DNA of 64,000 nt from Candidatus Thorarchaeota archaeon (GTDB lineage: Archaea; Asgardarchaeota; Thorarchaeia; Thorarchaeales; Thorarchaeaceae). A program made the position numbers and the translations under genes. The notes beneath the pieces are model-generated. The model was given only the letters and a program-made list of their open reading frames with translations, made no database searches and was not told the DNA's origin. Location: positions 54,025-118,024 of the forward strand of contig RDNZ01000001.1 in the NCBI GenBank assembly GCA_011364905.1, written 5' to 3'. This document shows, piece by piece, positions 14,426 to 64,000 of the stretch (within the stretch, counting starts at the first letter, position 1; each line of letters begins with the position of its first letter).

Positions 14426-16669
14426 TTATTCTCTCTTTCGAATTACAATGACACCGACTATTACAATAACGGCTGCAATACTTCCTGCAACGATTATCGG
14501 TGTCAGAATATACGGAGGTGTATTTGTGGTAGTGCTAGTTGGTGTTGATGAAGCCGCACTAAGATGTGTCAAAACTCCTCCTTCTGCTCTATTCATCCCC
14601 CAATCCCAAGCAACCACCCATATAGTAAGATTTGAGGTGTGCTCCAAGAAGGGAACTGACACTGACCAATTATATCCGTTATAAGCCATTGGAAAGCTAC
14701 GAACAACACCATCATCTACCTGAACATAGAGTGTGACATTCTCCAATCCTGCAAGATTTTCGCTAATCATCGCCCAGTAGGTGAAAGGGCCAGTCCAAAA
14801 GTCGCTTGGATTAGTACCTCGACCATATATCGACGGAGGTATGTCATCAATTGACGAAAACATCATTCTTCGAGTCCAATCTCGAGCTTTTACCAAAGCA
14901 CTGTATGCTGAATGCCAGTCCATTTCATTGTAGGAATTTCTTGCAGATTCAAATGAAGCAAGAGCAGCAGATTCCGCGGCATAGGTTACGCCTCTCTCAT
15001 CGGATCGAAGATTGGATTGCTCCTCAAGAAAGTTTGACCATAGAAGAGCTTCCATCTGGTCCAAATAGGTCCCCTGAACCCAGTTCTTCTCAAAAGTGGA
15101 GGTACCGTTGTGTTCAGCAAAGTATCCCATAGGTCCGTAATAGAAGTCACTTGAATAGTGCTCATGTTGCCAAGAGTGCGCAAATCCGATTGCATGCATG
15201 GTCTCATGAAGTTGAGTGGCTGATATTCCATCCTTGGGAGTCACACCATCCGGGCGATAATAACGTTCCCAAGATTTCCAGATGACTGTCTGTCCTCCTC
15301 CACCCAGTCCGGTGTACGCTCTTCCATAGACATGCATTTCCATTTGCTTCTTTATGAAGACAACTCCAAACACATTGATGTTGTCGTCATTAACCACATA
15401 TGCGGGTCTCATTCCACTGTAGATAGCATTAAACATGGACCCACCATCAACAATTGTTGTTCCATCTAAGTTATCTGCGGCGTATGTCCAGAACAGGCTG
15501 TTCCAAGAAGGTTCTTCATCGATGTCTAGATATTGGACATCAACCTCCCATTGAATGAAGGGATAGAGTTCCTCAAGATGCGCCTTTTGCATCTCAGCGT
15601 TGGTCACCCATTCGAGGCTATTGACAGAGGTCCCATCAGCTACATCCATGCAAAACACCAGCACCTTCAGTCTACCAACATCAACATACTTTGCAGGCTG
15701 ATGCTGATATGGGAAAAGTAGTTGGCTGATAGGGTCCCAGATGCACTCTCTCAAGTAAACATTGAGTGCATCTACATCTGCAGGTATGTCTAAGTTGAGA
15801 GATCCCACTTTGTCCTCTAAATCTTGAGTCCAGAAATCGTAAGACGTATTGATTTCTTCGCTCCACCAAACCTTGCACCATTTCAAGTACCACTGATGAG
15901 CACTAGGGTCCACTACATACAGATTATAGCGTCCACCGAAGAACGGATAGTCCATCGTGACATTCGGATTCAGAGCGTTGTCCCACTCCAATCTAAACCA
16001 GTCTTGATTCTGTCCCGTATCAGGATCAAGGGGGTGGTAGTTGTACCAATGTTCCAGACTGTGATCCGCGCTGTCAAACTCCGAGAAATTAACAAGATAA
16101 AGAGTGTACCCAAGATCAGGCGGACTCGTGTATGGATTCTCTTCTAGCCAATCCTCCACTGCATAGCCATCAATGGCACGACCTGCTCGAGGATAGAATA
16201 TTCGTTGTGGTTCGTCGAGGTTGTCCTTCTGATATAGTAGTGCGCTCTCATCAAGGCCTGTCCCTGTTTCGCTTCCATTTATGGAATTGTCAAGCATGAC
16301 TTGGCGAAGTTCGTCGTTGTATGCAGCATCTGCATAGACGATTTGATACTCGATATTATAGGTGATTTGAGCTGCTTCTGTAGAAAAGTTCCTGATTGTT
16401 GGTAAATCCTGTAATAGTAACGGTTCATCAATTAGAGAAGGATCATAACCCACTACGATGATATTAGCTGTCCAGTTTCTCTCAATTGGTTGAGGCCCCT
16501 GACTAAGAGTAGCTTGCTTTACTGGCTGTCTGTGATTATCTTGCACACCAAAAGGAGTGGCAATCACAAGCACTAAAGCAATACCTAGGACAAGAGCACG
16601 ACGCATAGTGTTCCCTGCCTTCTTCACCATATTAACAAACTGGTTCATGTAACCGCAACCAAACCACAT
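14426..16669 (-). CDS. Secreted metzincin-type zinc metalloprotease with a Ser/Thr-rich stalk and C-terminal TM anchor. The true start may be 16630 (MVKKAG...) or 16606 (MRRALV...).
   Basis: HETMHAIGFAH fits the HExxHxxGxxH metzincin zinc-binding motif. The N-terminal hydrophobic stretch ALVLGIALVLVIATPFG is a signal peptide. A stalk SAASSTPTSTTTNTPPY is followed by the TM helix IIVAGSIAAVIVIVGVIVI plus RKRE at the extreme C-terminus. Confidence 0.7.
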   Translation of the reverse strand: MWFGCGYMNQFVNMVKKAGNTMRRALVLGIALVLVIATPFGVQDNHRQPVKQATLSQGPQPIERNWTANIIVVGYDPSLIDEPLLLQDLPTIRNFSTEAAQITYNIEYQIVYADAAYNDELRQVMLDNSINGSETGTGLDESALLYQKDNLDEPQRIFYPRAGRAIDGYAVEDWLEENPYTSPPDLGYTLYLVNFSEFDSADHSLEHWYNYHPLDPDTGQNQDWFRLEWDNALNPNVTMDYPFFGGRYNLYVVDPSAHQWYLKWCKVWWSEEINTSYDFWTQDLEDKVGSLNLDIPADVDALNVYLRECIWDPISQLLFPYQHQPAKYVDVGRLKVLVFCMDVADGTSVNSLEWVTNAEMQKAHLEELYPFIQWEVDVQYLDIDEEPSWNSLFWTYAADNLDGTTIVDGGSMFNAIYSGMRPAYVVNDDNINVFGVVFIKKQMEMHVYGRAYTGLGGGGQTVIWKSWERYYRPDGVTPKDGISATQLHETMHAIGFAHSWQHEHYSSDFYYGPMGYFAEHNGTSTFEKNWVQGTYLDQMEALLWSNFLEEQSNLRSDERGVTYAAESAALASFESARNSYNEMDWHSAYSALVKARDWTRRMMFSSIDDIPPSIYGRGTNPSDFWTGPFTYWAMISENLAGLENVTLYVQVDDGVVRSFPMAYNGYNWSVSVPFLEHTSNLTIWVVAWDWGMNRAEGGVLTHLSAASSTPTSTTTNTPPYILTPIIVAGSIAAVIVIVGVIVIRKRE

Positions 16670-50311: not shown

Positions 50312-50917
50312 TCATTGGTGCTTTCTCAGTCTTATTGAGTTCCAAGCTAGCAGTCCAACGAAAACCAGTGATCCAAAAACGGTATACCATTCAATCAGCG
50401 GGCCCCTTAGTGTCAGTGCAAATCCAAGACTAGAGAGGGTGACAGCAAGTCCATATATTCCAACGAGTCGGTTGAACTTGGAATTCAAAAAGAGCGCAAT
50501 AGTGATGATGATGAGCACAAAAAAGTTGAGCAAGAAGAAATCGCCAGAAGCGGTCATATGTGGCTCTCCCGTGTTTTCAGAAAAAACCCCAATAGCCATT
50601 AGAGCAAATCCTGAAGCTACACCTAGCACTTGGCCAATCACCATGATTGCTTTCTGAATGTTACTTTCAGTATACCAGTCCTTCAGACTGAGAAAGAAAG
50701 GTACAAGGGTAATGCCTGTTAAGATACAGCCAATATTGTAGAAGTAGCCTCCGAAGGGACTGTGATTGAGGTTCCCCAAACGACTCAGGTAGTTGGTAAT
50801 AGGACCATAAGGCTCTGGGTAGAAAGCCCATGAAACAAGAGTGAACACACAATAGAATAGAATGACCAAGAATCCACTGATTGTGGTCAATGGATAGTTT
50901 CGAATATTAAAACCCAT
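50312..50917 (-). CDS. Hypothetical integral membrane protein (6 TM helices).
   Basis: Six hydrophobic helices. No motif recognised. Confidence 0.45.
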   Translation of the reverse strand: MGFNIRNYPLTTISGFLVILFYCVFTLVSWAFYPEPYGPITNYLSRLGNLNHSPFGGYFYNIGCILTGITLVPFFLSLKDWYTESNIQKAIMVIGQVLGVASGFALMAIGVFSENTGEPHMTASGDFFLLNFFVLIIITIALFLNSKFNRLVGIYGLAVTLSSLGFALTLRGPLIEWYTVFGSLVFVGLLAWNSIRLRKHQ

Positions 50918-50957
50918 GGTATTCTAGGTGCAATTCGTCCTAATTAAACTACATTAC

Positions 50958-52217
50958 TCAGAGAACAGGAACAGATATGAGAAATGCCGCGCCTTTTCGC
51001 TCCTTCTCATCAAGAAGCTCAATAGTTCCGCCATATGACTCAACAATTCTTTTCGAGAGATAGAGACCAAGTCCTTTTCCTTCGCCTTTTGTAGTAACGC
51101 CTTTCTGGAAAATCTTTGGCCGAATGCTTGGTTCGATACCAGGACCATTATCTCGATATGTGATTATCAGCTGTTTCTCAACAAGTCCCAACCGAATTGT
51201 TACCACTGCGTTCGAGCCAACATAGTCAGCTGTGTTCCGAAGAAGGTTTTCTAACACAAGCGGCAGCAGAATCCCTGGACGTATATCAGCTGAACGAATG
51301 TCAGGTTCAATCACGATGCTGACCTTAGCGGCACTACTAGCCTGCTTAGCCCTGTCAGCCAAAGTCTGAACGGTTTCGAGAAAGTCGTATTCACTCGCTC
51401 GACCAACAACAGAAAATAGCTTGATGACGCGGGACATTCTTTCACTAACAGCAATCGACGTTGAGAGATATGATTCTTGATCCGGTGGAAGATTCAACTT
51501 CTGATGCAATAACTCGACAAGACCTCTCACAATCTGCATATCATTCCCTAAATCATGTGTGAGAACTGATGTGTATACTTCTAGCTCCCGTTGACGCTGC
51601 TCAAGGAACTGCTTATGTTCTTCAAGCTCCGATACATAATAATTTACAGACCAATTCAAAATGAGCACAACGAGAGACAGAGCCGCCTGGTCAATTATTG
51701 GTTCTAACGCTATCATAAAATCGATACTAGGATGAACATTGCAGTAGATGACGAGTCCCAGAGTTTGTCCTGTAATGAATACCCCTTCGATCTTAGCACT
51801 AAGCCATTGACTACCAAATAAGGCAGCGATAACTGGCCAAATGATTAAGTTCAACGACATCCTCATTGGTGATCTATTGAACATCACCAGAAGGAAGAGA
51901 TAAGGCATGGTTGCCATACTTAAAGTCGTAATCACACCTGCTGCTACGACATACTTGGTGCGGCTTAGGAGATAAATAGCAAGGAAAATGCCTGTCGCAC
52001 TTAAGAAAAGGAGAAGATTACTGAACAGAATACCAAGCCCAATTTGGACAATTGGCAGAACAATCACTATCAACAGCAGTGCAAATGAAAGAAGACGGGC
52101 CTTCATTCTCAATATATCAGAATGGACTAATTCTGATGGCTCAACCAGGATTTGGCGAACTCTCTGAGATATTGTGACAGTATTCGAATGAGGTTCGTCA
52201 TCTGCCATTCTCAACAT
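50958..52217 (-). CDS. Sensor histidine kinase with an N-terminal 5-6 TM helix membrane domain. No cognate response regulator is adjacent.
   Basis: H-box VLTHDLGNDMQ. N/G boxes LENLLRNTADY, DNGPGIEPS and GKGLGLYLSKRIVESYGGTIEL. Confidence 0.75.
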   Translation of the reverse strand: MLRMADDEPHSNTVTISQRVRQILVEPSELVHSDILRMKARLLSFALLLIVIVLPIVQIGLGILFSNLLLFLSATGIFLAIYLLSRTKYVVAAGVITTLSMATMPYLFLLVMFNRSPMRMSLNLIIWPVIAALFGSQWLSAKIEGVFITGQTLGLVIYCNVHPSIDFMIALEPIIDQAALSLVVLILNWSVNYYVSELEEHKQFLEQRQRELEVYTSVLTHDLGNDMQIVRGLVELLHQKLNLPPDQESYLSTSIAVSERMSRVIKLFSVVGRASEYDFLETVQTLADRAKQASSAAKVSIVIEPDIRSADIRPGILLPLVLENLLRNTADYVGSNAVVTIRLGLVEKQLIITYRDNGPGIEPSIRPKIFQKGVTTKGEGKGLGLYLSKRIVESYGGTIELLDEKERKGAAFLISVPVL

Positions 52218-52369
52218 ATCCGAATTTTTCAGCGTGAATTCTCACTTAAATAAGACATGTAAGGTTTGGTGGGTTGTGTTAATGTGTATTTGACTAATCA
52301 ATACGAAGAGAAAGACGAATAGAGAATGCGTCGTAGATTAGTTGCTATTTTTGGTTTCCATACTCCTCC

Positions 52370-54010
52370 TTAATCCTTGAGAAGTTTCGGTACATACTTC
52401 CAAACAACTGCAACCAAGATAGCCACAATGATTGCTTGGCTCAAGAGGCTAGCAATTTGCATCCCTGTGAAGAGCATCACTGCCCCATAACCTACAAGGG
52501 GAGCAATTCCAACAATCGCCCCCACAGCGGCAGAAACAAGACCCATAGCTTGATCTGATGCCACATTGACAGCGACAGCTCGGCCACCACCTCGCATACG
52601 AAAGACAGTTCCACCTACTGCCATACCAACTATGTATCCGCAGGGTATCTGAATAATAGGTATCAATAGGATGAGTGGAGTTATTGGGTTGTTGATTAGA
52701 ACAATGAGGTCAATTGCGACCATGCTCAAAACATAAGGCACGAGTACGATTGAAGTCTTGCTTTGAAGGACGAGCCTTGAGCTTATCGGAAGTCCTTCAT
52801 GTATGGACGCTCCTTGTGTGTCGAACATAAGAATTGATACAAGAGAGATTCCTCCGAATAGATTGGCATATTCAACCGCAGCGAGCGTTGTTATGCTGCG
52901 TAGAAATCCTGCATCATCTTTCCAATTTTGGATCATTGGAAACAGCATTATGACAAGGAAAATTGGAATAGCAAAAACAAATGCGGATCCGATGTTCCTG
53001 GTTGCCAATTTTAGGTCTTTTCGAATCATAGCTCTAAGTGGTGTAGTGGAATCGATTGCTATCTCCCGCTCTGAGATGATTTGACTTGTAGAAACTCCGC
53101 TAATCGTTACTTCTCTAAGTGATTTTCCACTCCTACGATATGCCACGATCGCAATGAGGGTATAGAATCCTGTACCTATTGTTGAAGTAAGAAGAACACT
53201 TGAGGATGTGGGAAAGGCAATTGATGCTGCAAGAAAACCATATGAAAATGGAAAAATCAAAGATAGAATAGAGAAGGCGGTCTCACCCCAAACAGATGAG
53301 AGCTGAGTTATGAATAATATCATGCCAGGAAGATAACTGCTGAGACCATAGACACTGATCATACCGATGACAATACCAAGAGAAGCAGCAATCCTAACAA
53401 AAGCGGAGCTTCTCGATTCATCTGATGAATGAGATTTCTTGTGGAACCATTTTGATATCCCAATCAATGCCCCTATGGCAATCGAAACAGTGCTTGCGCA
53501 TGCAACAAGAGCAATTAGTGAAACCAAGGGTCCGAATATAATGAGGCTGCCAATTGGAAAAATGGTCAGAGATAGAATCACAGGCGCAAAGAAGACCCGA
53601 GCGAAAGTCATGAATGAAAGTTGTTCGAGGTCAGCCTTGCTAAGAGGCAAGGTGGCAGGTAGACTCATTACGCCTGATGAGATCAATCCAGTTGTTGAGG
53701 TGAGATTAAGAAAGAATACAACTACAAAACTGAGTGCCAAATACACAGCAAAACCTACAGCTAAGCGAGGTCCCGGATTTCCAAGAGAAACATCGAATGC
53801 AGACGCGGCAAGAGCAATTATAGCTATCATCGAAAGTATCATCGATGTCATGATATAGCTAATACGGCTCGATGACTTGATTGACCGGGAAATCTTTTCA
53901 GGATTCTCCTTAATACGAGCAAGGTTAGATGGATTCATCTCTAAAAAAGCTTGAAATCGGGACTCTCGTGCAACCACCCCAGCAAGTTTCCAACACTCTG
54001 AGAATTTCAT
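52370..54010 (-). CDS. ABC transporter permease, polytopic (10 or more TM helices).
   Basis: Hydrophobic throughout. It overlaps the upstream ATPase gene by 4 nt (ATGA), giving an operon structure. Confidence 0.65.
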   Translation of the reverse strand: MKFSECWKLAGVVARESRFQAFLEMNPSNLARIKENPEKISRSIKSSSRISYIMTSMILSMIAIIALAASAFDVSLGNPGPRLAVGFAVYLALSFVVVFFLNLTSTTGLISSGVMSLPATLPLSKADLEQLSFMTFARVFFAPVILSLTIFPIGSLIIFGPLVSLIALVACASTVSIAIGALIGISKWFHKKSHSSDESRSSAFVRIAASLGIVIGMISVYGLSSYLPGMILFITQLSSVWGETAFSILSLIFPFSYGFLAASIAFPTSSSVLLTSTIGTGFYTLIAIVAYRRSGKSLREVTISGVSTSQIISEREIAIDSTTPLRAMIRKDLKLATRNIGSAFVFAIPIFLVIMLFPMIQNWKDDAGFLRSITTLAAVEYANLFGGISLVSILMFDTQGASIHEGLPISSRLVLQSKTSIVLVPYVLSMVAIDLIVLINNPITPLILLIPIIQIPCGYIVGMAVGGTVFRMRGGGRAVAVNVASDQAMGLVSAAVGAIVGIAPLVGYGAVMLFTGMQIASLLSQAIIVAILVAVVWKYVPKLLKD

Positions 54011-54798
54011 TCAGCGAGTGCCTCCCTAATGACAGACACTCCTTCTTCAACTTCTTCCTCTTGTTCTGTTAGTTTTAGGAAAAGACTCTCAAGTGTTGCA
54101 CCATCTTTGTGAGCTCTTGAACGAAGCTCGTCTAAAGTTCCTTCTGCAATCAAAAGACCCTCATCAATTATTCCAACACGGTCACAGAGACCTTGGGCCA
54201 CCTCCATAACATGCGTGCTGAGTAAGACTGATCCCCCATTTTCCGCATGAATCCTGACGATATCCTTCATGATTTTGGCTGAACGAACGTCCAATCCCGA
54301 GAAGGGTTCATCGAGTATCAGTAGTTTAGGTGCATGCAGTAAGGCGGCAATAAGCATCGTTTTCTGCTTGTTTCCCTGTGAAAGCGTCACAATCATCTTG
54401 TCATAGTGCTGGCTAAAATCAAGGGCCTTGGCGAACTCCTTTGCTCTCTTACTGGCTTTATCCGAAGGTAGTTGCCGTATTGAGGCAACAAAATCAAAAA
54501 GCTCACGAGGTGTTAATGAGTCGTACAACTGCTGCTCCTCAGGTACATATCCAACCATGCGTTTTACCTCTACAGGATTATCCGTAGAGTCGATTCCAAA
54601 CACGGTAGCAAGGCCAGAATCGGGATCCAGGAGACCCATGATCATTTTGATCGTTGTAGACTTTCCAGCCCCATTAGGTCCAAGCAGACCATAAATCTCG
54701 CCCTCGCGAACATCAAGTGAGAGCTCACTGACTGCAATCAGATCCCCAAAGGTCTTCACTAGATGCTCCAATTTAACCGCAGACATTTTTTTCTTCAA
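54007..54798 (-). CDS. ABC transporter ATP-binding protein.
   Basis: Walker A GPNGAGKST. Signature LSQGNKQK. Walker B LLILDEPFSGLD. H-loop STHVME. Confidence 0.9.
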   Translation of the reverse strand: MKKKMSAVKLEHLVKTFGDLIAVSELSLDVREGEIYGLLGPNGAGKSTTIKMIMGLLDPDSGLATVFGIDSTDNPVEVKRMVGYVPEEQQLYDSLTPRELFDFVASIRQLPSDKASKRAKEFAKALDFSQHYDKMIVTLSQGNKQKTMLIAALLHAPKLLILDEPFSGLDVRSAKIMKDIVRIHAENGGSVLLSTHVMEVAQGLCDRVGIIDEGLLIAEGTLDELRSRAHKDGATLESLFLKLTEQEEEVEEGVSVIREALAE

Positions 54799-54885
54799 AC
54801 TCCATTCTTATGCTAAAGAGACTCTCAGATGCGTATTCTCTTCGGGAGAATATATAATGTTTAATAACTACGCGAGAAATCATAA

Positions 54886-55338
54886 TCAAAGGCCCTCCAA
54901 TTCGTCTTGCTCGTAGCTATCGCCTCTTAGTTTCACTCTCCTTTTGACAAAGGTCCAGTAGCTGTAGAATACAATCCATCCAATTGACGGGATTGCTGCA
55001 AGGAGAAAGAACGCAGGCGCAGCAAAAAAGAAGTAGATGGTAATCAAACTCAGCATAAGTACATTGATCACCCAAGCTCTTCGTTGCCAACCGTAATTTG
55101 ATACGACAGCCACTGCACGAAGAGCAGCAAAGCCTCTCGCATTCAAAGTGTAAAGCCCGTCCTTGTCGGTGGTCACAACGGCTTGCATCTTCTTGAGATG
55201 AAAATCTAGGAGACCGTTACTTTTGATTCTCAAGGTCCGTTTCAGATCTGCAAACCTGAGAGGCTTATTTGCTAGTTCTTTCAAGATAGCGATTCTCATT
55301 GGATGCGAGATTGCTTCGAATACTTCATCCGAGGTCAT
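54886..55338 (-). CDS. ArsR-family winged-helix regulator fused to a C-terminal two-helix membrane domain. It is the first gene of the ABC exporter operon.
   Basis: The HTH is SHPMRIAILKELANKPLRFADLKRTL. The C-terminal TM helices are VINVLMLSLITIYFFFAAPAFFLLAAIPSIGWIVFYSYW. Confidence 0.7.
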   Translation of the reverse strand: MTSDEVFEAISHPMRIAILKELANKPLRFADLKRTLRIKSNGLLDFHLKKMQAVVTTDKDGLYTLNARGFAALRAVAVVSNYGWQRRAWVINVLMLSLITIYFFFAAPAFFLLAAIPSIGWIVFYSYWTFVKRRVKLRGDSYEQDELEGL

Positions 55339-56095: not shown

Positions 56096-57154
56096 CTACC
56101 TTCGCTTTACGACGAAGGCGATGCCAATAACGACGACAGCTCCACCAATGGCAACGGGCAGAAGATTGTCAGCTAGGAATGTAGGAAGTTGGAATCCTCC
56201 AGTAAGAAGAAGGTTCTCAAAACCAATCTTGGGATCATGGATGATTTCGTTGCCCTGTGGATAGTTCAAGTAAATGTCCTGTTCAGTAGCTGATATCTCA
56301 TGAATGCTGGAGTTAACTTGATGAGATACACCGTCAATCATAGCTGTGTCTTTCCAAGAGAAGAATCCATTCACATCAGTCACAGAAACGTCGACTGCAG
56401 ACTCACCAACCGCTCGACCATCCTCTTCATCTTCTGTTACGCCATCATAGGAGGCTTCCGATTCTGAACTGAATTCGACTTTCAAAGCCAGCTGAGATGC
56501 GCTCTCAGTGAAGTTGAAACCACGAATCGCGACATCAATCTTCACTTGAGTAGGTGCGATTAATGATCCGTTGATATCAGTGAATGCTCCGGCTGCGTAG
56601 ATCTTGGCTTCAAACACACCATCAGTTGTCACTACATCGAAAACGTGAACTGGTCCATCAGCTGTGTTCTCCACCGTGTAGGCGATAGGATTGAAGCTGT
56701 TGAGCAGCAAGGTTTGGACTCCTGTATCAACATTGTCATCGTAGACACCATTGCCGTTCACATCGAGATATTCAATGAGCTCTTTGAAATTCACCTCGAA
56801 CTCGCGTCCGGTTTCATTGACGCCAGTTTCTGTTTCGAAGCCCACTTTGAATTGAACGCCATCGGATCCTACAACGACTTCGATCTTGAAGGAATCTTCA
56901 GTGCCTCCGGATTCGAGTTGGGACTCTATCTCCGCGGAGAATGCCATGACATTGACATTGACCTCTCGATTGTTGGAATCATCCCCACTGCCATCATCAC
57001 CTGCAGTGTGGGTGTTATCATCAGTAGTTGTGTTGTCATCCACCTGAGTGTTTTCATCTTCTGTGGTGGTCTGAGCTTTGACCCTCACAGCTGTTGTTAG
57101 CACTAAAATGAGCAACATCACAAGGATAGCTTTGTTGCGAGTAGGGTGTTTCAT
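56096..57154 (-). CDS. Secreted acidic (D/E/T/N-rich) cell-surface protein with a C-terminal TM anchor.
   Basis: Signal peptide MKHPTRNKAILVMLLILVLTTAVRVKA. Low-complexity DDNTTTDDNTHTAGDDGSGDD. C-terminal helix LLPVAIGGAVVVIGIAFVV followed by KRR. TATA-like TTATATAC about 32 nt upstream. Confidence 0.6.
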   Translation of the reverse strand: MKHPTRNKAILVMLLILVLTTAVRVKAQTTTEDENTQVDDNTTTDDNTHTAGDDGSGDDSNNREVNVNVMAFSAEIESQLESGGTEDSFKIEVVVGSDGVQFKVGFETETGVNETGREFEVNFKELIEYLDVNGNGVYDDNVDTGVQTLLLNSFNPIAYTVENTADGPVHVFDVVTTDGVFEAKIYAAGAFTDINGSLIAPTQVKIDVAIRGFNFTESASQLALKVEFSSESEASYDGVTEDEEDGRAVGESAVDVSVTDVNGFFSWKDTAMIDGVSHQVNSSIHEISATEQDIYLNYPQGNEIIHDPKIGFENLLLTGGFQLPTFLADNLLPVAIGGAVVVIGIAFVVKRR

Positions 57155-57329: not shown

Positions 57330-58523
57330 TCATCCAATGATGAGACTCTCTAGGTCTCGCGGATACTTTGTCAACACCTCAATGCCATCATTAGTCACTA
57401 CGAAACTATCGCTATGTCTGAACCCTCCGAGACCCTTTTCATAAACGCCTGGTTCGCACGAGAATATCATTCCTGGTCTAAGAACATCCTCATACCCCCT
57501 GTCCAAGAAAGGCCGTTCATGGCCTTCCATTCCAAGTCCGTGTCCAGAATGATGCCTTACAAGATGAATGACGCCATGGTTCTTGAAAGCTTGTCTTGCA
57601 GCCTGATCTACATCTGAACAGTATACACCAGGACCTGCAGCCTCAAGAGCAGCATCCTGTGCGGCTAACATCGCTTCGAATAGTTCTTTCTGCCTTTCAT
57701 TGGGCGAGCCCATGAACATAGTACGCTCCAATTCCGCTTGGATGCCATACACATCTGAAGATGCACCTGTGACTAGTGTATCACCTTTCTTGAAGACAAG
57801 TCCTCGAGAGAGTGCATGTGGGAAGTACGAGTTAGGTCCGACTTGCCCACGATACAGTGCAATGGCTGGAAACATAGTGAATCCTGTTGGATGATACTCA
57901 TCTCCAAGCTCTGTCACCATGTCCTTAGAACCTTGCATACTGGCTCTAATTGTCACATCAATCTCGTTAACCCCAACCTCTGTATATTCTTGGAGATACT
58001 TATGTGCTCTATCAGCCCATTTGGCAGACTCGCGCATCAGCTGTATTTCCTCAGGCTCTTTGATTACACGCATGTCCATTATGATATCAGGCAGTAGTTT
58101 GAACCTGAGACCTGTCACCTCTTCAAGTGACGGCCCTTTGTACCCCCACATTCCTGGGGCTCCAGGAGCTTCGGAAGCAACTCGATTGGGAGATAATTCG
58201 AGTTCATTCTTCAGAATTGCCGCTAGATGGTACATTGGATGTTTTTCATCAGGATATTCGAAGTATGAAAACACTTGAGAAACAAAGGGAACCTGATGCT
58301 GAACATTGTCTATCTCAAGTGAGGGGACAAAGAAATTCACATCTCCCTTATGAAGAATCAAGATAATTGGTCTCTCAGTAGGGATAAACGATAGTCCAGT
58401 GAGGTAAAAGATGTTCTTTGAGTTGAAAATCATGAAAGTCTCGACATCTTGTTTTTCAAGTTCTATGCACAACTTCTCGGTTCGCTTTTTGTGATGAGCT
58501 GGAGGTAGATGTGTAAGTGCCAT
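57330..58523 (-). CDS. M24-family metallopeptidase (Xaa-Pro aminopeptidase / prolidase-like). Start chosen at MALTHL; the ORF-track extension to 58694 overlaps the upstream gene and is unlikely to be real.
   Basis: Creatinase-like N-domain plus pita-bread fold with metal ligands HHSGHGLGMEGHE and FSCEPGVY. Confidence 0.8.
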   Translation of the reverse strand: MALTHLPPAHHKKRTEKLCIELEKQDVETFMIFNSKNIFYLTGLSFIPTERPIILILHKGDVNFFVPSLEIDNVQHQVPFVSQVFSYFEYPDEKHPMYHLAAILKNELELSPNRVASEAPGAPGMWGYKGPSLEEVTGLRFKLLPDIIMDMRVIKEPEEIQLMRESAKWADRAHKYLQEYTEVGVNEIDVTIRASMQGSKDMVTELGDEYHPTGFTMFPAIALYRGQVGPNSYFPHALSRGLVFKKGDTLVTGASSDVYGIQAELERTMFMGSPNERQKELFEAMLAAQDAALEAAGPGVYCSDVDQAARQAFKNHGVIHLVRHHSGHGLGMEGHERPFLDRGYEDVLRPGMIFSCEPGVYEKGLGGFRHSDSFVVTNDGIEVLTKYPRDLESLIIG

Positions 58524-58605
58524 CTTTTGCGCACACTCTAGTGTATTATCAGTAAGTTCAACGCAATAAGGATTCCCAAAGAGTGGAGATTCTGCAATCC
58601 CAGAA

Positions 58606-60846
58606 TCAGTTGCTTTTAGAAAGCAATCTAATGGTGAACAGACGCCCCTCACAGACGTCCGTGCGTGCGTAAGTTTCCTTACTGAATTGTCCATTCAACG
58701 ATTCAGTCATCAATTCTGCAGCAAGCAGGCCTAGTGTTCCGCTACTGTAGCCATCCTGTTCATCTGCCCTTCGACCAGGAGCTTTGATGTCGATTTCCCA
58801 GTAACTCTGACCAGAGTATTCAGCTTCATGAATAGCTATCCTAACGGTTTCGCCCCTCTTTCTGCACTCCAGTGCACTATAGAGAATGTTAAGAAAGATA
58901 TGCACAAGGAGATCATTTGCCATCACATAAGCATCGTATTCCTCTGATTGGAATTCCACAATGAGCTCGCCAGAGCCTATTCGCCTAGTGAAGATATCTA
59001 GCGCGCTCACTATTGTATCCACTAGGTTTGTTGGTTGCAGTTCGCTGAGTTTCAGATTATCAGCTTCACTAAGAAGTCGTACATTACTAATTAATTGCTC
59101 AGAGAATGAGATGACCTGACGTCCGTCTTCAGCAAGACGTTTCCGCTTTTCATTTGTCAAATCATTGGACCCAAGGAGTTCCAAAGACATCATCATCATC
59201 TGATTGTAATTTGACACATCGTGCATGAGGAGGTCTGCATACATGTTAGCGCGTCTGTGCGAATCCTCAACCTGATGCATGGATCTGACATATAGCCAAA
59301 TCAATAGAGGCGGCCCAGCAAGAAGCCCGACAAATAGGAGCACCTCTGAGATCCACCATCCGGGTGTCCATGCAACATAATACCCTTTGAGGGTGTTCGG
59401 GAGAATCCACATGTTCAAGAAGAATAGCACATACAGCTCCACCGGCGGTTTGCCTTTCGACCCTTCAGCAAGCATGAAGATGATGTATGCAAAAGCGAAC
59501 ATGATGAACAAGTTTGACCCAACTATTACTATGCTGCTCAATGGGCTCGTGCCTATTGAGGGCCATATCCCTATGGCAACTTGATTCACTATTTCTCCGA
59601 GTTCAATTGCTCCAACAAGACCAAGAATAACGAGAAGCAGCTGGATTGCTGAAGGAACCTTTTCTAGCTTGATTGGAGGTGTCCTTGTCCACCGGATAGT
59701 CAAGTAAAGAAGACCAATTGTGAGCAGACTTCCGACTGTGATTGGAGTGACGGGTTCTCCTTGCAAGGATTCGGAAAGGAGAAAACGGACCACAAGTGCT
59801 ATTGCCACACCAGCCCACATGCCGAATAGAAGTATCAATGGATAATGATTCCAGTTTTCCTTTCTCTTCGGATAGACATAGAGAAGAATTGCCATCATTA
59901 TTGATAATGATGCAGCGCCAAGGTGAATGATGGAGTACGCCAGAAGATTCTCAAGCGGAGGGGGAGAAGTGAGAGACATCTTTTCGATTGTGATGGTCAA
60001 AAGAAACGGGAGGTATGCAATCAGAATTAAGCCTATGACAATACCATAAGCGAATTTCCGGTTGTAACCTTGCTGGCGCAAGAAGGGTACACCCATAGCC
60101 AATGCTAGAAGCACATATGCAGCCATTTGCAATGTTTCTGGATATTCCCAGTTTGCTGTGGGATCGGGAAGAGTTGATAGGAGCAAAGCTGCAGCGATGG
60201 AGAACAACAAGACAGAACTGATAAGATAGCCGGAGTCAAGTTGAAAACCATACTTCTTGATTTTGGGGATCATGAGTGCTATCAACAAAAAGCAGACGAC
60301 GCTAATGCTGCAAAGTACCCAGCTCATGTCATTCAATAGCGTTGGAGTTATGAAATCCACAACGAGTAACGAAATCAAACCATAGACAATCAATGGTAGT
60401 AAGACGATTATGATTATGATTAGGCGGTTTGGAATTGCTTGCCTCCTTTGAGGGTCATCTTTAATGATGAATACGCAAGCAGCCATTAGAAGAACTGCCA
60501 GCATGGACAACTCCAAGAGGTCGGTGATCAATAGCGATGGTTCTCGCTGAACAGTTTCACCCGGTTCAAGGAGTAAATGCCTCAGTGCGCTGCCTATATG
60601 AACAATCATTGGAAAAAGCAACGCTGTCATCAGGAGCATGTTTGGTCGATTCAGTTTCTCTTGATAGGCAAGTACGCTTAACGCTGCAGGTATCGCAATC
60701 CAGAATGCAATCATAGCATGGACACCAATTCTTGTGGCAGGTGTGTACGAAACGAAATTGCCCGGCCCAATAACAAACGCGGCAGCTAAAGTCGCGAGAG
60801 GGACTAAGACTATGACTTTGACCAATGCTCGTCTTAATCCTCTCAC
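58606..60846 (-). CDS. Large sensor histidine kinase with a roughly 16 TM helix N-terminal membrane domain. No response regulator nearby.
   Basis: About 520 aa of hydrophobic helices, then the H-box LLMHDVSNYNQMM and a C-terminal HATPase-like region with a degenerate G-box region (the ORF ends ...GRLFTIRLLSKSN). Confidence 0.7.
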   Translation of the reverse strand: MRGLRRALVKVIVLVPLATLAAAFVIGPGNFVSYTPATRIGVHAMIAFWIAIPAALSVLAYQEKLNRPNMLLMTALLFPMIVHIGSALRHLLLEPGETVQREPSLLITDLLELSMLAVLLMAACVFIIKDDPQRRQAIPNRLIIIIIVLLPLIVYGLISLLVVDFITPTLLNDMSWVLCSISVVCFLLIALMIPKIKKYGFQLDSGYLISSVLLFSIAAALLLSTLPDPTANWEYPETLQMAAYVLLALAMGVPFLRQQGYNRKFAYGIVIGLILIAYLPFLLTITIEKMSLTSPPPLENLLAYSIIHLGAASLSIMMAILLYVYPKRKENWNHYPLILLFGMWAGVAIALVVRFLLSESLQGEPVTPITVGSLLTIGLLYLTIRWTRTPPIKLEKVPSAIQLLLVILGLVGAIELGEIVNQVAIGIWPSIGTSPLSSIVIVGSNLFIMFAFAYIIFMLAEGSKGKPPVELYVLFFLNMWILPNTLKGYYVAWTPGWWISEVLLFVGLLAGPPLLIWLYVRSMHQVEDSHRRANMYADLLMHDVSNYNQMMMMSLELLGSNDLTNEKRKRLAEDGRQVISFSEQLISNVRLLSEADNLKLSELQPTNLVDTIVSALDIFTRRIGSGELIVEFQSEEYDAYVMANDLLVHIFLNILYSALECRKRGETVRIAIHEAEYSGQSYWEIDIKAPGRRADEQDGYSSGTLGLLAAELMTESLNGQFSKETYARTDVCEGRLFTIRLLSKSN

Positions 60847-60981
60847 TTTCTAATCTCCTGAAGATGCAAACGATATCTTTGAACGTGAAAAGCCTTTCTT
60901 GCGCAAAGCCGAGGAAAAAAAGTCGAATTCTTGCGCTGAACAAAGAGCTATATAATCAATTCATCGAAGATATCATATCGT

Positions 60982-61350
60982 GTGGTGAAATTATCGATGG
61001 AAAAGTTTCAGCGAACGGAAGCGATTCCGGAGCAATTGCGGTATGCTATGGTGCCAAAGCCGCTCCTGAAACGCTTCATCATTGGAAGGTCAATCCGGTG
61101 TGCTATATGCATAGCACTGGCGGGTTTAATGTTAGTGCCCCTCACTGTTTTACCTGGACTGATTCTCTTTGTGCTGCCAGCAGAGGTCACAGTAGTCTCC
61201 AAGATCCGCGATGAAACGGAGCTTATTCGATGGGTGAGATGCAATATGGTCTCTGGGGAATGTAACTGGGATGATGCAGAGTCTGAAACCGAATTGGCTC
61301 GAATCAGAGCTCATGACAGACCCAGTGTAACGCAGGGTTTTGCTCGATAA
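60982..61350 (+). CDS. Small membrane protein with a TM hairpin and conserved amphipathic tail. Paralog of 62525..62878.
   Basis: Aligns with the downstream paralog: ALAGLMLVPLTVLPG / ALAGLVILVYMVVLVPG; KIRDETELIRWVR / KIYDETRIIQYLR; ETELARIRAHDRPSVTQGFAR / SSEMARIKASENRDASRQFSR. Confidence 0.55.
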   Translation: MVKLSMEKFQRTEAIPEQLRYAMVPKPLLKRFIIGRSIRCAICIALAGLMLVPLTVLPGLILFVLPAEVTVVSKIRDETELIRWVRCNMVSGECNWDDAESETELARIRAHDRPSVTQGFAR

Positions 61351-61443
61351 ACACGGTTGGTTGTTAGGGCACGGGGGTCCAGCTACTCTCGTGCCGCCTT
61401 TGTCTAGGGGTTCGTCTTGGCTTACCTGTAATTTGATTGGCCG

Positions 61444-62334
61444 CTAAGAAAGGTAATCAATAAAGTCGAAAATTCGAAGAGCAATTTGACACTCATCACT
61501 TCCGGCTTGTGCGGCATCGGCAACGGTAATTTTACTATCGGATGAGAAGGCATTCTTCACAACTGGATGATTAGCAAAATCGCGAATCTTCTCTCCTCTC
61601 AAGTTCCGTTTCAAGCATTTCATCAGAGCTTTTTGGGAATAAGAGTCCCACGGATTCACTGTCAATGCCCACGAGAATGAGTCGATTGCGGATTCGTAAT
61701 TATCGTTCATCTCAAAAGCTATACCGTAACTACTCCAAGCATCGACTTCTTTCTCTTTGCGGAAACGTGGTTTCTTCCTCTGCTGAACATCAGTTTCATA
61801 ATAATAGACTTGAAGTTCAAATTGATCTCCAAGTGCTTTCTGAAGCAACGCCTTAAGAGGACCCAAATAGGGATGAATTGGTGCGATAAGAGCCTGAAGA
61901 CTTTCAGTACGATTGACTTTGATATCGAGTTCATTTGGGATTTGCAGTCTAATTCTGTTTCGACCGAGGTTGATCCATCCAACTTGTCCTGTAGGAGATT
62001 CGAATGTGATGCCCATTGCTGGATTGTACCTAAGTCTTGTAACATGCCCGGTTCTAAATGACATAGTCCATTTTGCTTCACCTTGCTCTACGGCAACATG
62101 GACTTCTGGATAGGAACATCGCTCATCTAGGGACATCGCCTCTTTGTGAGCCTTGGAAGCTTTCTTAGCATCATCATTAAGCAAGTAAATGTCACCCATG
62201 AACATCATAGGGAGAGGATTGTTCGGTTCACGGTCTGAGAGTTCTTCGAATACCTCGAATGCATCATAGATGTCACCGCGTCCCAGAAAAGCAAATCCAT
62301 CATCTAAGGTTGGCTTCCCCAAATCATAACGCAC
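61444..62334 (-). CDS. TPR-like repeat protein, hypothetical.
   Basis: TPR-like helical pairs occur at the N-terminus (GDIYDAFEVFEELSDREPNNPLPMMFMGDIYLLNDDAKKA) and C-terminus (SYGIAFEMNDNYESAIDSFSWALTVNPWDSYSQKAL). Confidence 0.5.
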   Translation of the reverse strand: MRYDLGKPTLDDGFAFLGRGDIYDAFEVFEELSDREPNNPLPMMFMGDIYLLNDDAKKASKAHKEAMSLDERCSYPEVHVAVEQGEAKWTMSFRTGHVTRLRYNPAMGITFESPTGQVGWINLGRNRIRLQIPNELDIKVNRTESLQALIAPIHPYLGPLKALLQKALGDQFELQVYYYETDVQQRKKPRFRKEKEVDAWSSYGIAFEMNDNYESAIDSFSWALTVNPWDSYSQKALMKCLKRNLRGEKIRDFANHPVVKNAFSSDSKITVADAAQAGSDECQIALRIFDFIDYLS

Positions 62335-62524
62335 CCCAGTAAGGACTGGCGACTCTTGTGATATAAATTATAGGAATCTCTTTTTCTGTCTCATGCCGTT
62401 TCCGTCTAACGTTTGGCGCTGGTCAAAGAATTTATATATGTTTGTGGCACTGGAACGATAGGTAAAAACGCATCGTTCCGGAATAACGGAACGATAAGTT
62501 CGGTATTCGCGTGGTGCTTACAAA

Positions 62525-62878
62525 ATGTATAATGCAAGAATCAAAACAAAAGACACAGATGACGTGACTCACATCGAGAGTCTGAGTTTCTCACTCAATC
62601 GGGTCATTGCGAATCGAGTAGCACACATGCTTGCTGCTCTTGCAGGTTTGGTAATTCTTGTTTACATGGTTGTACTTGTCCCAGGTGCAGTCGTGATTGC
62701 CTTACCAGGAGGAGTTTATGCAGCCGGCAAGATCTATGATGAAACTCGAATCATTCAGTATCTCCGATATGGAGACCCAGTTGATCCCGGCGTATGGGAA
62801 AACGCAGAACTTTCCTCTGAGATGGCTAGAATAAAAGCATCGGAGAACAGAGATGCTTCTAGGCAGTTTTCACGATGA
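62525..62878 (+). CDS. Small membrane protein, paralog of 60982..61350.
   Basis: See the alignment above. 117 aa, with a TM hairpin and a conserved C-terminal ARIxA...R...FxR motif. Confidence 0.55.
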   Translation: MYNARIKTKDTDDVTHIESLSFSLNRVIANRVAHMLAALAGLVILVYMVVLVPGAVVIALPGGVYAAGKIYDETRIIQYLRYGDPVDPGVWENAELSSEMARIKASENRDASRQFSR

Positions 62879-62990
62879 GCTGATGTCATGAGCGTTCTCT
62901 CTATCTTGACAAATGAATCATCTATCTCCACCGTGACCCCATCAACCTCTGGTGGGGTCACACTCCTATTTAGAAAGAAGAGGTGTCGTA

Positions 62991-63944
62991 ATGAGCTGGC
63001 CAAGTAATTATCCGGACCCCGAAGACAATGATAGGAAACCCGCAGAAACAAGTGCTGCTGCGCCATCACCAAGTGGAATTTTAAAAGATTTCAAAGTAGG
63101 TTTTACGCTTGCTGTAAAGAACTTCCTGTCATTTGGACTTGCGATGCTAGGAATTATTCTGATAACAATACTACTCTTGCTACTAATCGTACTCTTCATA
63201 CTGATCCCAATCCTCTTCACGTTGGGACTCCCATTCCTCATCCAACTTGTAGAAACAATTGCAACTGGATTTCAAACTACAACAGGACTCACTCTCGTCA
63301 TGCTAATCATGTTCCTGGTCCTACCAATTCTGGGACCCTTCTTCGTTGCACTTGGAGCGATATTTGGCATGGCACGGGAGCTTGTTGAAAGCGATGGAAC
63401 TCAAGCAGAGAGTGCATTCTCATGGTACGGCAAAAGAGGGCTATCGCTTCTAGGAGGGGGCGCCATACACTTCCTAATTACGCTTGCGCCGCTTGTAATT
63501 GCATTTCTGGCGATTTCCTATCCAACTTGGAATCCCCCTTCAGATGAGGAACTGCGAGTCATAATTCCGCTTATTGTTGTCTGGATCATTCTGGTCAATG
63601 GAATGTTATCTCTAACTTATCCTGGAATCATAGATGGACTGTCAGCAGTCAAAGCCGCTGGACGCTCTGTAAGGTTAGCCTGCCAATTCCCAGTGCGCGT
63701 ATTAGGTGCGTGGTTGATCATTACTGTACTTGTGACTATTCCACTTATACCTGTCATCAACGAAGTTGCATTCCTCTGGGCCCCAATCATACCTTCGGAT
63801 TTATTGGAGCCGTATGGTGCGTTGGCGATTCTTACACTACTCTTTGTTATCGTACCAGCTGTGTCCATCGTTCTGACAAGAATCTACATGATTCTAACGG
63901 CAAAAGTCGATGCAACCTACACCCAAGGAGCTGATTCAACATGA
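62991..63944 (+). CDS. Polytopic membrane protein (7 or more TM helices), hypothetical. Start chosen at MSWPSNY; the ORF track starts at 62952.
   Basis: Hydrophobic helices throughout. A purine-rich GAAGAGGTG lies upstream of the ATG at 62991. The stop overlaps the next ATG (ATGA). Confidence 0.5.
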   Translation: MSWPSNYPDPEDNDRKPAETSAAAPSPSGILKDFKVGFTLAVKNFLSFGLAMLGIILITILLLLLIVLFILIPILFTLGLPFLIQLVETIATGFQTTTGLTLVMLIMFLVLPILGPFFVALGAIFGMARELVESDGTQAESAFSWYGKRGLSLLGGGAIHFLITLAPLVIAFLAISYPTWNPPSDEELRVIIPLIVVWIILVNGMLSLTYPGIIDGLSAVKAAGRSVRLACQFPVRVLGAWLIITVLVTIPLIPVINEVAFLWAPIIPSDLLEPYGALAILTLLFVIVPAVSIVLTRIYMILTAKVDATYTQGADST

Positions 63945-64000
63945 ATCCAAAAGTATCCCACCCACGAATCAAGGAGTTCGAGGTCGTGACAAATCCAAAG
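63940..64000 (+). CDS. 5' end of a downstream gene (MNPKVSHPRIKEFEVVTNPK...), truncated by the window end.
   Basis: The ATG overlaps the preceding stop in an ATGA arrangement. Only 20 codons are visible. Confidence 0.25.

Follow-up and report, generated by a model that had tools for sequence, protein, structure and literature searches.

Paralogous hairpin membrane proteins of Asgard archaea and their conserved neighbourhood with a candidate repressor and membrane-anchored hydrolases

Introduction

What might two similar small membrane proteins do when their genes lie on either side of an opposite-strand open reading frame (ORF) with tetratricopeptide repeats (TPR), next to a gene for a large membrane protein that resembles a histidine kinase (HK)? 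This question is raised by a stretch of 64,000 nucleotides from contig RDNZ01000001.1 of a Candidatus Thorarchaeota archaeon (assembly GCA_011364905.1), which was analysed as a whole and is called the window here. The two small genes are named hpA and hpB. An earlier note on this DNA had suggested an envelope-stress or membrane-remodelling module in which the small proteins surround a TPR scaffold. Comparison with related loci (labelled L001 to L022) points elsewhere. The two proteins belong to an Asgard family of hairpin proteins whose recurrent partners are a polytopic membrane protein, a putative repressor and a predicted surface hydrolase, and the TPR gene stands outside this set. Our preferred reading, held tentatively and given a little under an even chance, is that the hairpin proteins may be membrane adaptors in a regulatory module for surface hydrolases, their tails engaging the repressor.

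Results

hpA and hpB belong to a small family found in Asgard archaea

Both genes lie on the plus strand, hpA, the A-type gene, at 60997..61350 and hpB, the B-type gene, at 62525..62878. The mechanical ORF of hpA (60982-61350) opens at a GTG at 60982. Its true start is most likely the ATG at 60997 and not this GTG, because the resulting length of 117 amino acids (aa) matches nearly all orthologs, which show 58-88% identity and are nearly all 117 aa long. The hpB protein also has 117 aa, and its orthologs are 64-84% identical. Proteins of the window are identical to the entries EAX87_00450 and EAX87_00465 of a Candidatus Thorarchaeota archaeon metagenome-assembled genome (MAG); the latter NCBI entry is hpB.

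In BLASTP, hpA and hpB are 36% identical across 96 aa (E=2e-15). The earlier note had called them clear paralogs with a shared tail, KI(R/Y)DET..I..(V/L)R...ARI(R/K)A; both ORFs were found and both proteins carry the motif, so that this part of the note holds. It had also named, as a possible refutation, a similarity limited to the hydrophobic hairpin. The two C-terminal tails, 49 aa long from K69 onwards, match by themselves with 35% identity (E=3e-10), and the similarity therefore reaches beyond the hairpin. By these alignments and the searches below, hpA and hpB are shown to be ancient tandem paralogs, and their family to be exclusive to Asgard archaea.

A profile search with both proteins gathered 95 clusters, in which A-type members are 58-88% and B-type members about 30-40% identical to hpA. 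All named clusters come from Thorarchaeota, Sifarchaeia or 'Promethearchaeota' MAGs, and none of the 95 carries a Pfam domain. An exhaustive hidden Markov model search of 1.84 billion representative proteins returned 24 family members at E<=1e-3, the distant ones bearing the names Hodarchaeota, Promethearchaeota or Thorarchaeota. No match was found for hpA or hpB in Pfam (E<=1) or NCBIfam, nor a consistent Pfam match (E<=5) when 22 diverse members were scanned singly. PHROG and PADLOC gave no match for hpA or hpB, for the distant subtype hpC described below, or for their neighbours, the membrane protein M317 and the HK-like protein. DUF7121, GPDPase_memb, DUF7847 and Glucan_synthase were isolated weak matches among hairpin and M317 members, which other members did not reproduce, and were set aside. 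A metagenome scan for the most distant hairpin subgroup gave no match, a weak negative since it required near-exact 8-mers. The impression of the earlier note that no known family could be named is borne out, and the concern that the proteins might belong to a widespread DUF with no conserved neighbourhood is answered by the missing family name and by the gene order described below. Judged from these searches, the hairpin family is small, uncharacterised and restricted to Asgard archaea.

A short proline-rich hairpin of nearly fixed length

Members of the family have about 110-147 aa and consist of a subfamily-specific N-terminal segment, a hydrophobic hairpin and a conserved acidic and aromatic tail. 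In the hairpin, a basic residue is followed by 18 uncharged residues, Pro-Gly, 14 uncharged residues and then K, R or D. The first arm has exactly 18 residues in 97 of 114 members and the second exactly 14 in 102 of 114. Three prolines are conserved (P-x4-PG-x6-P), one of them five residues before the PG and another seven after the PG proline, giving the pattern ...PL..LPGLI...LP.E.... The tail carries the motif YD(E/D)...W(E/D)..E..E.ARI, in which the Trp is kept and the acidic stretch ends in E..E.ARI. This invariant 18+PG+14 proline-rich hairpin is the most unusual feature that remains.

The N-terminal segments are strongly conserved inside the A-type and inside the B-type and differ between the types. 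The membrane Glu of the LPxE motif is kept in the A-type, in hpC and in distant members and is lost in the B-type (LPGG). This loss and the N-terminal divergence indicate that hpA and hpB have diverged in function.

Because basic residues flank the hairpin on both sides, both termini should be cytoplasmic by the positive-inside rule. An AlphaFold2 model of hpA, built on a 55-sequence alignment, has a predicted local distance difference test score (pLDDT) of 64 and a predicted template modelling score (pTM) of 0.25, and consists of one long helix with no hairpin.

A stretch of 18+PG+14 residues might be too short for two bilayer crossings. The proteins would then form an Asgard-specific class of monotopic 'proline-knot' hairpins, half-spanning wedges in the cytoplasmic leaflet that organise or bend the membrane around a sensory-hydrolase complex of the cluster proteins. 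The almost invariant length of 18+2+14 residues, the three prolines round the turn and the basic flanks are consistent with this idea, for which the length of the hairpin is at present the argument. However, an 18-residue helix can just span a bilayer, the second arm could be extended by the amphipathic helix that follows, and the AlphaFold2 model of hpA is uninformative on this point. We therefore give a monotopic wedge little credence. If it were true, the family would be a prokaryotic counterpart of the hairpins of reticulons, caveolins and oleosins in the lineage closest to eukaryotes. With the oleosin proline knot, caveolin and reticulon/REEP proteins the family would share a hydrophobic stretch that falls short of two complete spans, a cluster of prolines at the turn, and termini that are predicted to lie on one side of the membrane. 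No homology to these eukaryotic hairpin families was detected, and oleosin and reticulon hairpins are much longer than 18+PG+14.

PGPGW (PF09656) and YbaN-type proteins are small hairpin membrane proteins as well. The Asgard family resembles them in its short two-helix hairpin, its Pro-Gly turn and a conserved polar residue early in helix two. Membership in PF09656 was rejected, as no match was found for hpA or hpB (E<=1) or for the 22 diverse members (E<=5).

Hairpin genes share a conserved neighbourhood

The gene order at the window locus, called type I, is an M24 peptidase and the HK-like gene on the minus strand, followed on the plus strand by hpA, hpB, M317, HTH215, M307 and a gene of the PF00144 'beta-lactamase' family. 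Gene listings and a tblastn map show the same order in seven distinct lineages (the window, L001, L004, L010, L011, L013 and L017), and the neighbourhood of the small proteins is thus conserved. hpB heads the gene string hpB, M317, HTH215, M307 and PF00144 hydrolase. Peptidases of the M24, M20 and M28 families flank type I loci.

M317 (62991..63944, plus strand) is a polytopic membrane protein of 317 aa counted from the ATG at 62991; the mechanical ORF opens at 62952. Nearly all of its 92 homologs are named Thorarchaeota, one is labelled Thermoplasmata, and none carries a Pfam domain. Its AlphaFold2 model is all helical (pLDDT 80.7, pTM 0.78). A fold search of the PDB with this model gave nothing significant, the closest shape being CysZ (6d79; TM-score 0.43-0.59, E=3). 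Judging by its conserved position, M317 is a partner of the hairpin genes.

The start codon of HTH215 overlaps the stop codon of M317 at 63941-63944. Only the first 20 codons of HTH215 (63941..64000, plus strand) lie in the window, whose end truncates the gene; by tblastn they are 85% identical to HTH215 of L001. The L001 ortholog matches the helix-turn-helix (HTH) models HTH_5 with 38.4 bits (cut-off 22) and HTH_20 with 31.4 bits (cut-off 27), and a paralog in L009, HTH215b, matches HTH_20 with 41.9 bits. HTH215 also has a helical C-terminal domain and weak NCBIfam matches to Phr and ArsR (Phr 27.5 bits vs a cut-off of 320). We regard it as a putative ArsR/Phr-like repressor. M307 stands for a 307-aa family of polytopic membrane proteins that has no annotation.

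The hydrolase gene lies outside the window, and PF00144 is present in the orthologous downstream proteins. In the L001 copy, SCTK provides the SxxK motif, and a signal anchor and a transmembrane (TM) segment occupy the N- and the C-terminus, respectively; its best NCBIfam matches are far under their cut-offs. Because of the TM anchors at both ends and the SxxK motif, it is predicted to be a surface-exposed, membrane-anchored serine hydrolase.

Hairpin genes were also found elsewhere in Thorarchaeota and in Hodarchaeota. A second, 'type II' Thorarchaeota locus, present also in the complete chromosome CP070658.1, encodes the distant subtype hpC of 138 aa. Its order (L006-L009) is an M317-like gene on the minus strand, followed by hpC, M317b, HTH215b, PF00144, M307 and PF00144. 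M317b shares 35-41% of its residues with M317, and HTH215b 37% with HTH215. In L019, a lone B-like hairpin gene is followed by M319, HTH214, PF00144, M308 and PF00144. Since these paralogous cassettes keep M317, HTH, M307 and PF00144, the recurrent partners of the hairpin proteins are M317, HTH215, M307 and the PF00144 protein, and the HK-like gene is specific to type I. As a side observation, L009 also encodes on its minus strand (L009:4121-6463) a 780-aa protein in which an M317-like membrane domain at the N-terminus is fused to a large C-terminal region with Cys/His-rich repeats at its end (ACHSACHSACHSAC...).

Beyond the cassettes, the Hodarchaeota contig L021 (L021:2713-4338) carries a 110-aa hairpin gene 29 bp upstream of a membrane-anchored PF00144 ortholog, which shares 54% identity with the Thorarchaeota enzyme; this 4.3-kb contig contains no M317 or HTH gene. 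Other distant hairpin members adjoin an M14 peptidase or a peptide-binding SBP_bac_5 protein. Solo A-type genes (L015:8001-8354 and L016:7215-7568) lie beside archease, DUF998 and thiolase genes, with no M317, HTH or hydrolase.

The Hodarchaeota pair bears on an alternative in which the hairpin proteins would work solely with the PF00144 surface hydrolase in the membrane, serving its anchoring, assembly or activity control, and have no part in transcription, the repressor regulating the operon alone. Here the hairpin gene directly precedes the hydrolase ortholog, every Thorarchaeota cassette with sufficient downstream sequence has one or two PF00144 genes, and the hydrolase is membrane-anchored at both ends. 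On the other hand, the most conserved soluble part of the hairpin proteins is the tail, which is predicted to be cytoplasmic, whereas the hydrolase domain is predicted to be extracellular. In addition, the solo hairpin genes have no hydrolase nearby, and the Hodarchaeota example is a single one. We consider a role confined to the hydrolase possible but unlikely.

The small size, two hydrophobic helices, charged C-terminal tail, paralogous pair and nearby hydrolase genes might also recall a holin/antiholin-like pair, or another element derived from mobile elements or defence systems. This seems hardly credible, as neither PHROG nor PADLOC gave a match, and the genes hold a stable syntenic chromosomal position across an archaeal class, among housekeeping neighbours and with no integrase or viral genes nearby.

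The TPR-like gene is an insertion private to one lineage

The opposite-strand TPR-like protein that the earlier note had seen between the paralogs is encoded by an ORF of 296 aa (61444..62334, minus strand). The ORF is present, but its TPR scores are marginal: TPR_14 reaches 24.6 bits (cut-off 23.5), TPR_1 25.3 bits (27.8) and TPR_2 21.6 bits (27), and NCBIfam matches are likewise marginal. TPR pairs at residues of about 15-71 and 196-240 flank a non-TPR middle region. The GC content at third codon positions, 0.39, is near that of adjacent genes.

In all loci but the window type, a gene-free stretch of 166-240 bp separates hpA from hpB, also in L011 and L013, which are 88% identical. By blastn, homology between the window and its relatives ends at 61394 and restarts at 62389 (L001, L004) or 62474 (L011, L013), which delimits an insertion of about 1 kb (61396..62388) between the stem-loop that follows hpA and the promoter of hpB. 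The corresponding spacer is 0 bp long in L001, L004 and L017 and 60-90 bp in L010 and L011. Because hpA and hpB are adjacent in every other locus, the TPR gene is, on this synteny, an insertion private to this lineage and outside the conserved module, and the arrangement of paralogs around a TPR gene is an accident of one lineage.

An identical copy of the ORF in the same arrangement was found in contig L018 from an independent sequencing run. No relatives are present in any other fetched locus. None were found in a JGI metagenome pattern scan either, again a weak negative since near-exact 8-mers were needed. A TATA-like box lies about 30-40 bp upstream of the ORF on its own strand (62361-62369), and points in the opposite direction to the TATA-like box of hpB at 62429-62437 (ATATAAATT / AATTTATAT). 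The insertion may have brought or created its own promoter beside that of hpB. A target-site duplication was considered and rejected: the 20-bp imperfect repeat around the insertion is reached in score by 92 of 500 shuffles, and the duplication also occurs in L010, which has no TPR gene. No convincing terminal repeats were found around the insertion.

These data bear directly on the module of the earlier note, two small proteins assembled on a TPR scaffold for envelope stress or membrane remodelling. The ORF is real, a TATA-like box precedes it and the arrangement recurs in the independent run. However, the gene is missing between hpA and hpB in all other lineages, including the close relatives, and has no relatives in the loci or the metagenome scan. 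No genes for PspA/IM30, Lia proteins, ESCRT or similar systems occur in any locus, and the neighbour listings contain no partner of the PspA/IM30 (LiaH) or PspC/LiaF type and no LiaI. The proposed co-occurrence of small protein, TPR protein and kinase thus dissolved in relatives, where the TPR gene is absent and the HK-like gene is found at type I loci only. Synteny largely refutes a TPR-based stress module, and we regard it as very improbable. A LiaI-LiaF-TM_PspC match in M317 was taken as noise (3 of 46 members, best E 0.0089).

Conserved promoter elements and a candidate operator

Upstream of hpA, a promoter and 5' region (60931..60988, plus strand) comprises the block TTGCGCTGAAC..GAGCTATATAATCAATTCATC, a TATA box at about 60948-60956 and a Shine-Dalgarno (SD)-like GTGTGGTGA at 60980-60988. 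The window, L010, L013 and L014 all keep the block, as do the solo loci L015 and L016. From genome to genome it falls in different frames with respect to the hpA ATG, and it is therefore conserved as nucleotides and not as coding sequence. The solo genes of L015 and L016 share the block TTGCGCTGAAC..GAGCTATATAATCAATTCAT with type I hpA, which would fit a joint transfer of gene and promoter. A terminator-like stem-loop (61367..61395, plus strand; GGGCACGG..CTCGTGCC) follows the stop codon of hpA. It was found in L001, L004, L010, L011, L013 and L017, with a two-sided change in L013 (GGCATGAG/CTCATGCC), and a T-tract follows it on the 3' side in L001, L004 and L017.

The region upstream of hpB (62400..62518, plus strand) holds a GTCTAACGTTTGGCGC box, a TATA box (TTTATATA, 62431-62438), an SD-like GCGTGGTGCT and a candidate operator. 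Between the TATA box and hpB, a half-site (GGAACGATAGGT, 62452-62463) is followed by a perfect palindrome (ATCGTTCCG-GAATAA-CGGAACGAT, 62472-62495). The window has a single occurrence of the core palindrome, vs 0.04 expected. It is exact in 8 of 14 loci compared and can be aligned in eight lineages including L019, across which the arms are invariant and the loop is variable. Type II loci have a related element, AGAACGTTCGGGAAAAGCGGAACGTTCT, at the same position upstream of hpC. A plain RNA stem fits invariant arms with a variable loop less well than a protein site does, and the palindrome is probably the operator of HTH215.

In type II loci, the intergenic region of about 295 bp between hpC and M317b is also highly conserved in its nucleotides (L006:1386-1682, L007:2134-2430, L008:1232-1528, L009:8418-8711). 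It contains a GC-rich hairpin (GGTGCCGGCATCC..GGATGGCGGTGCC) of which both arms change between loci, and it could be a structured RNA or leader. The region of L009, the one copy scanned, has no Rfam match at E<=0.1. Rfam gave no match in the window, L001 or L009 as a whole, and no tRNAs were found in the window.

A divergently transcribed relative of histidine kinases

The gene next to hpA (58606..60846, minus strand) encodes a polytopic membrane protein of 746 aa with about 15-16 TM segments, a helix resembling the dimerisation and histidine phosphotransfer (DHp) domain with H542, and a degenerate GHKL domain. The earlier note had placed the small proteins just downstream of this gene. The neighbour is real, but it is transcribed divergently from hpA and is not an upstream co-directional gene; an intergenic region of 150 bp is common to all type I loci examined.

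The protein has no Pfam match at E<=1, and its best NCBIfam match is PorY (E=0.0012, 18 bits vs a cut-off of 350). A profile of its C-terminus reached ZraS in the PDB at E=0.54 at best; the IL-18 matches obtained with the single C-terminal sequence were discarded as noise. All of its 42 homologs are from Thorarchaeota bar one distant protein, P0137 (29% identity, 94% of length), which carries HATPase_c (E=1.4e-20). In hhalign, the family matches P0137 with 99.6% probability. It matches a canonical HK of the window (50958-52217) with 52% probability (E=1.5e-4) over 183 columns, in which the H, G1 and G2 boxes are aligned with each other. On account of this distant homolog and the profile comparison, its sole ties to kinases, we conclude that the 746-aa protein derives from a histidine kinase.

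Key positions were inspected in 35 full-length members. H542 in the H-box LLMHDVSNYNQ is kept in all 35 and aligns with the His of P0137 and of the canonical HK, and N653 in the N-box FLNILYSALEC is equally invariant. At the position of the G1 Asp (DYGQG in P0137), 33 of 35 members have Ala and the other two Thr or Ser, never Asp, in a (K/N)APGR motif. Of a GxLGL remnant, L705 is kept in 35/35 and G706 in 33/35 members, and the ATP lid is 10 residues shorter than in P0137. The description as a histidine kinase with a very large membrane domain is thus apt as to the hydrophobic segments and the HK descent, but the kinase label is unsafe because the G1 Asp is absent and the lid is shortened. By these alignments, the protein fails a defining feature of active kinases. 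No Response_reg domain occurs in any type I gene listing.

DivL is a bacterial pseudo-histidine kinase, and DivL-type proteins share with the HK-like protein the retained DHp His together with doubtful kinase competence. A DHp-type helix with a conserved His and doubtful kinase competence are also what links it to the nonenzymatic HK-like proteins of archaea. For these, phospho-acceptor or phosphatase roles have been suggested, and the archaeal examples are without a HATPase domain entirely and mostly cytoplasmic PAS/GAF proteins (Galperin et al. 2018, PMC5847659). In contrast, the present protein keeps a degenerate GHKL domain (N-box present, G1 Asp to Ala, lid shortened by 10) behind a domain of 15-16 TM segments.

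The divergent pairing raises the possibility that hpA and hpB are small-protein modulators of the HK-like sensor, binding its 15-16-TM domain and setting its signalling state in the manner of MgrB, SafA or MzrA. The shared 150-bp region in all type I loci examined fits this, as does the restriction of both families to essentially the same lineage. Hairpin genes without an adjacent HK-like gene are nevertheless found in type II loci and in L019, L015, L016, L020, L021 and L022, and it is M317 and HTH, not the HK-like protein, that paralogous cassettes keep. We consider such a modulator role rather improbable. In enterobacteria, MgrB, SafA and MzrA act on sensor kinases from the periplasmic side and span the membrane with a single TM segment. 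The hairpin proteins are likewise short and membrane-anchored, and hpA is paired divergently with the gene of a polytopic HK-type protein. They have no sequence relationship to MgrB, SafA or MzrA, however, possess a hairpin and a predicted cytoplasmic tail, and also occur with no HK-like neighbour.

Other features of the window

A separate sensory and transport cluster lies at 50312-55338. It comprises a DUF998 protein (50312-50917), the canonical HK mentioned above with HisKA and HATPase_c (50958-52217; HATPase_c E=1.3e-19), a 12TM_1 permease (52370-54010), an ABC ATPase (54007-54798) and a DUF7347-type HTH protein with hydrophobic segments (54886-55338). A 747-aa ORF at 14426-16669 (minus strand) was considered as a second HK-like paralog and proved unrelated; neither it nor the adjacent 2564-aa ORF (6493-14187, minus strand) has a Pfam match at E<=1e-3.

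The mechanical ORF of the M24 peptidase (57330-58694, minus strand, 454 aa) overlaps the 3' end of the HK-like gene. Because the orthologs are shorter (378-402 aa) and homology begins near 58520, the true start is probably internal and the two genes probably do not overlap. A very acidic protein of 352 aa, encoded at 56096-57154 (minus strand), carries a signal-like segment at its N-terminus and ends with a TM segment and a KRR tail. Pfam gave no match for it, and L013 has an 87%-identical ortholog in the same position. It is probably a surface protein.

Discussion

If the hairpin proteins are adaptors, they would lie in the membrane with both N- and C-termini facing the cytoplasm. The hairpin might dock with M317, M307 and the anchored hydrolase, and that of hpA also with the HK-like sensor. 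In the cytoplasm, the conserved tails would meet a partner for which the C-terminal domain of HTH215 is the most plausible candidate. HTH215 in turn would autorepress the operon via the CGTTCCG-N6-CGGAACG palindrome just downstream of the TATA box. A surface signal, for instance a peptide or another acyl compound on which the hydrolase acts or which it releases, might then alter the tethering or release of the repressor and so tune the expression of the surface hydrolases. The HK-like protein, with its phospho-acceptor His kept and its canonical ATP site absent, would probably be a non-kinase sensor or a phosphatase-type input, and in type I loci only.

Among archaeal autorepressors of the ArsR type, Phr and others have their binding site just behind the TATA box. 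HTH215 resembles Phr in its size of about 200-215 aa, its N-terminal winged HTH, its helical C-terminal domain and the position of a palindrome, which in its own operon lies after the TATA box and ahead of the start codon. Its match to Phr is, however, far under the cut-off, and its operator is predicted. A broader parallel, by analogy only, may be drawn to BlaR1/BlaI and MecR1/MecI of Gram-positive bacteria. There, too, a winged-helix repressor on a promoter palindrome and membrane transducers go together with a surface serine protein of the beta-lactamase or penicillin-binding protein fold. The repressor here, however, resembles ArsR/Phr rather than BlaI, and each PF00144 protein is a polypeptide of its own. 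No zinc-protease domain was found, and the host is an archaeon without peptidoglycan.

Several points weigh against the adaptor model. The hairpin and hydrolase genes of Hodarchaeota stand together on their short contig with neither HTH nor M317, which favours a direct link between hairpin protein and hydrolase over a link to the repressor. Because solo A-type genes sit in unrelated neighbourhoods, a hairpin protein cannot strictly depend on M317, HTH or hydrolase partners. The palindrome could be a stem in the 5' untranslated RNA instead of a DNA operator. The poor AlphaFold2 model of hpA does not reproduce the hairpin, and no locus encodes a response regulator that would give the conserved His a partner. 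Furthermore, every mechanistic step is inferred from gene order and sequence. We regard the descriptive part (the family, its geometry, the operon, the degenerate HK, the palindrome and the private TPR insertion) as solid and the step from adaptor to repressor as weak.

The four core families are nameless, and as a set they occur in Asgard archaea only. Taken as a whole, the logic of an autoregulated repressor, membrane proteins and a secreted or anchored enzyme is familiar, and no new mechanism is demonstrated. One feature of possible wider interest is the fixed and very short hairpin geometry, as monotopic hairpins typify eukaryotic membrane-shaping proteins. If the adaptor model is true, the locus would represent an Asgard-specific form of signalling, in which hairpin proteins tie surface hydrolases and polytopic membrane proteins to an ArsR-type repressor, with a kinase-dead relative of HKs as an extra input. 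It would then provide a concrete example for the poorly known repertoire of membrane-to-gene signalling in archaea, and would give a function to four families that are now 'hypothetical' in every Thorarchaeota genome.

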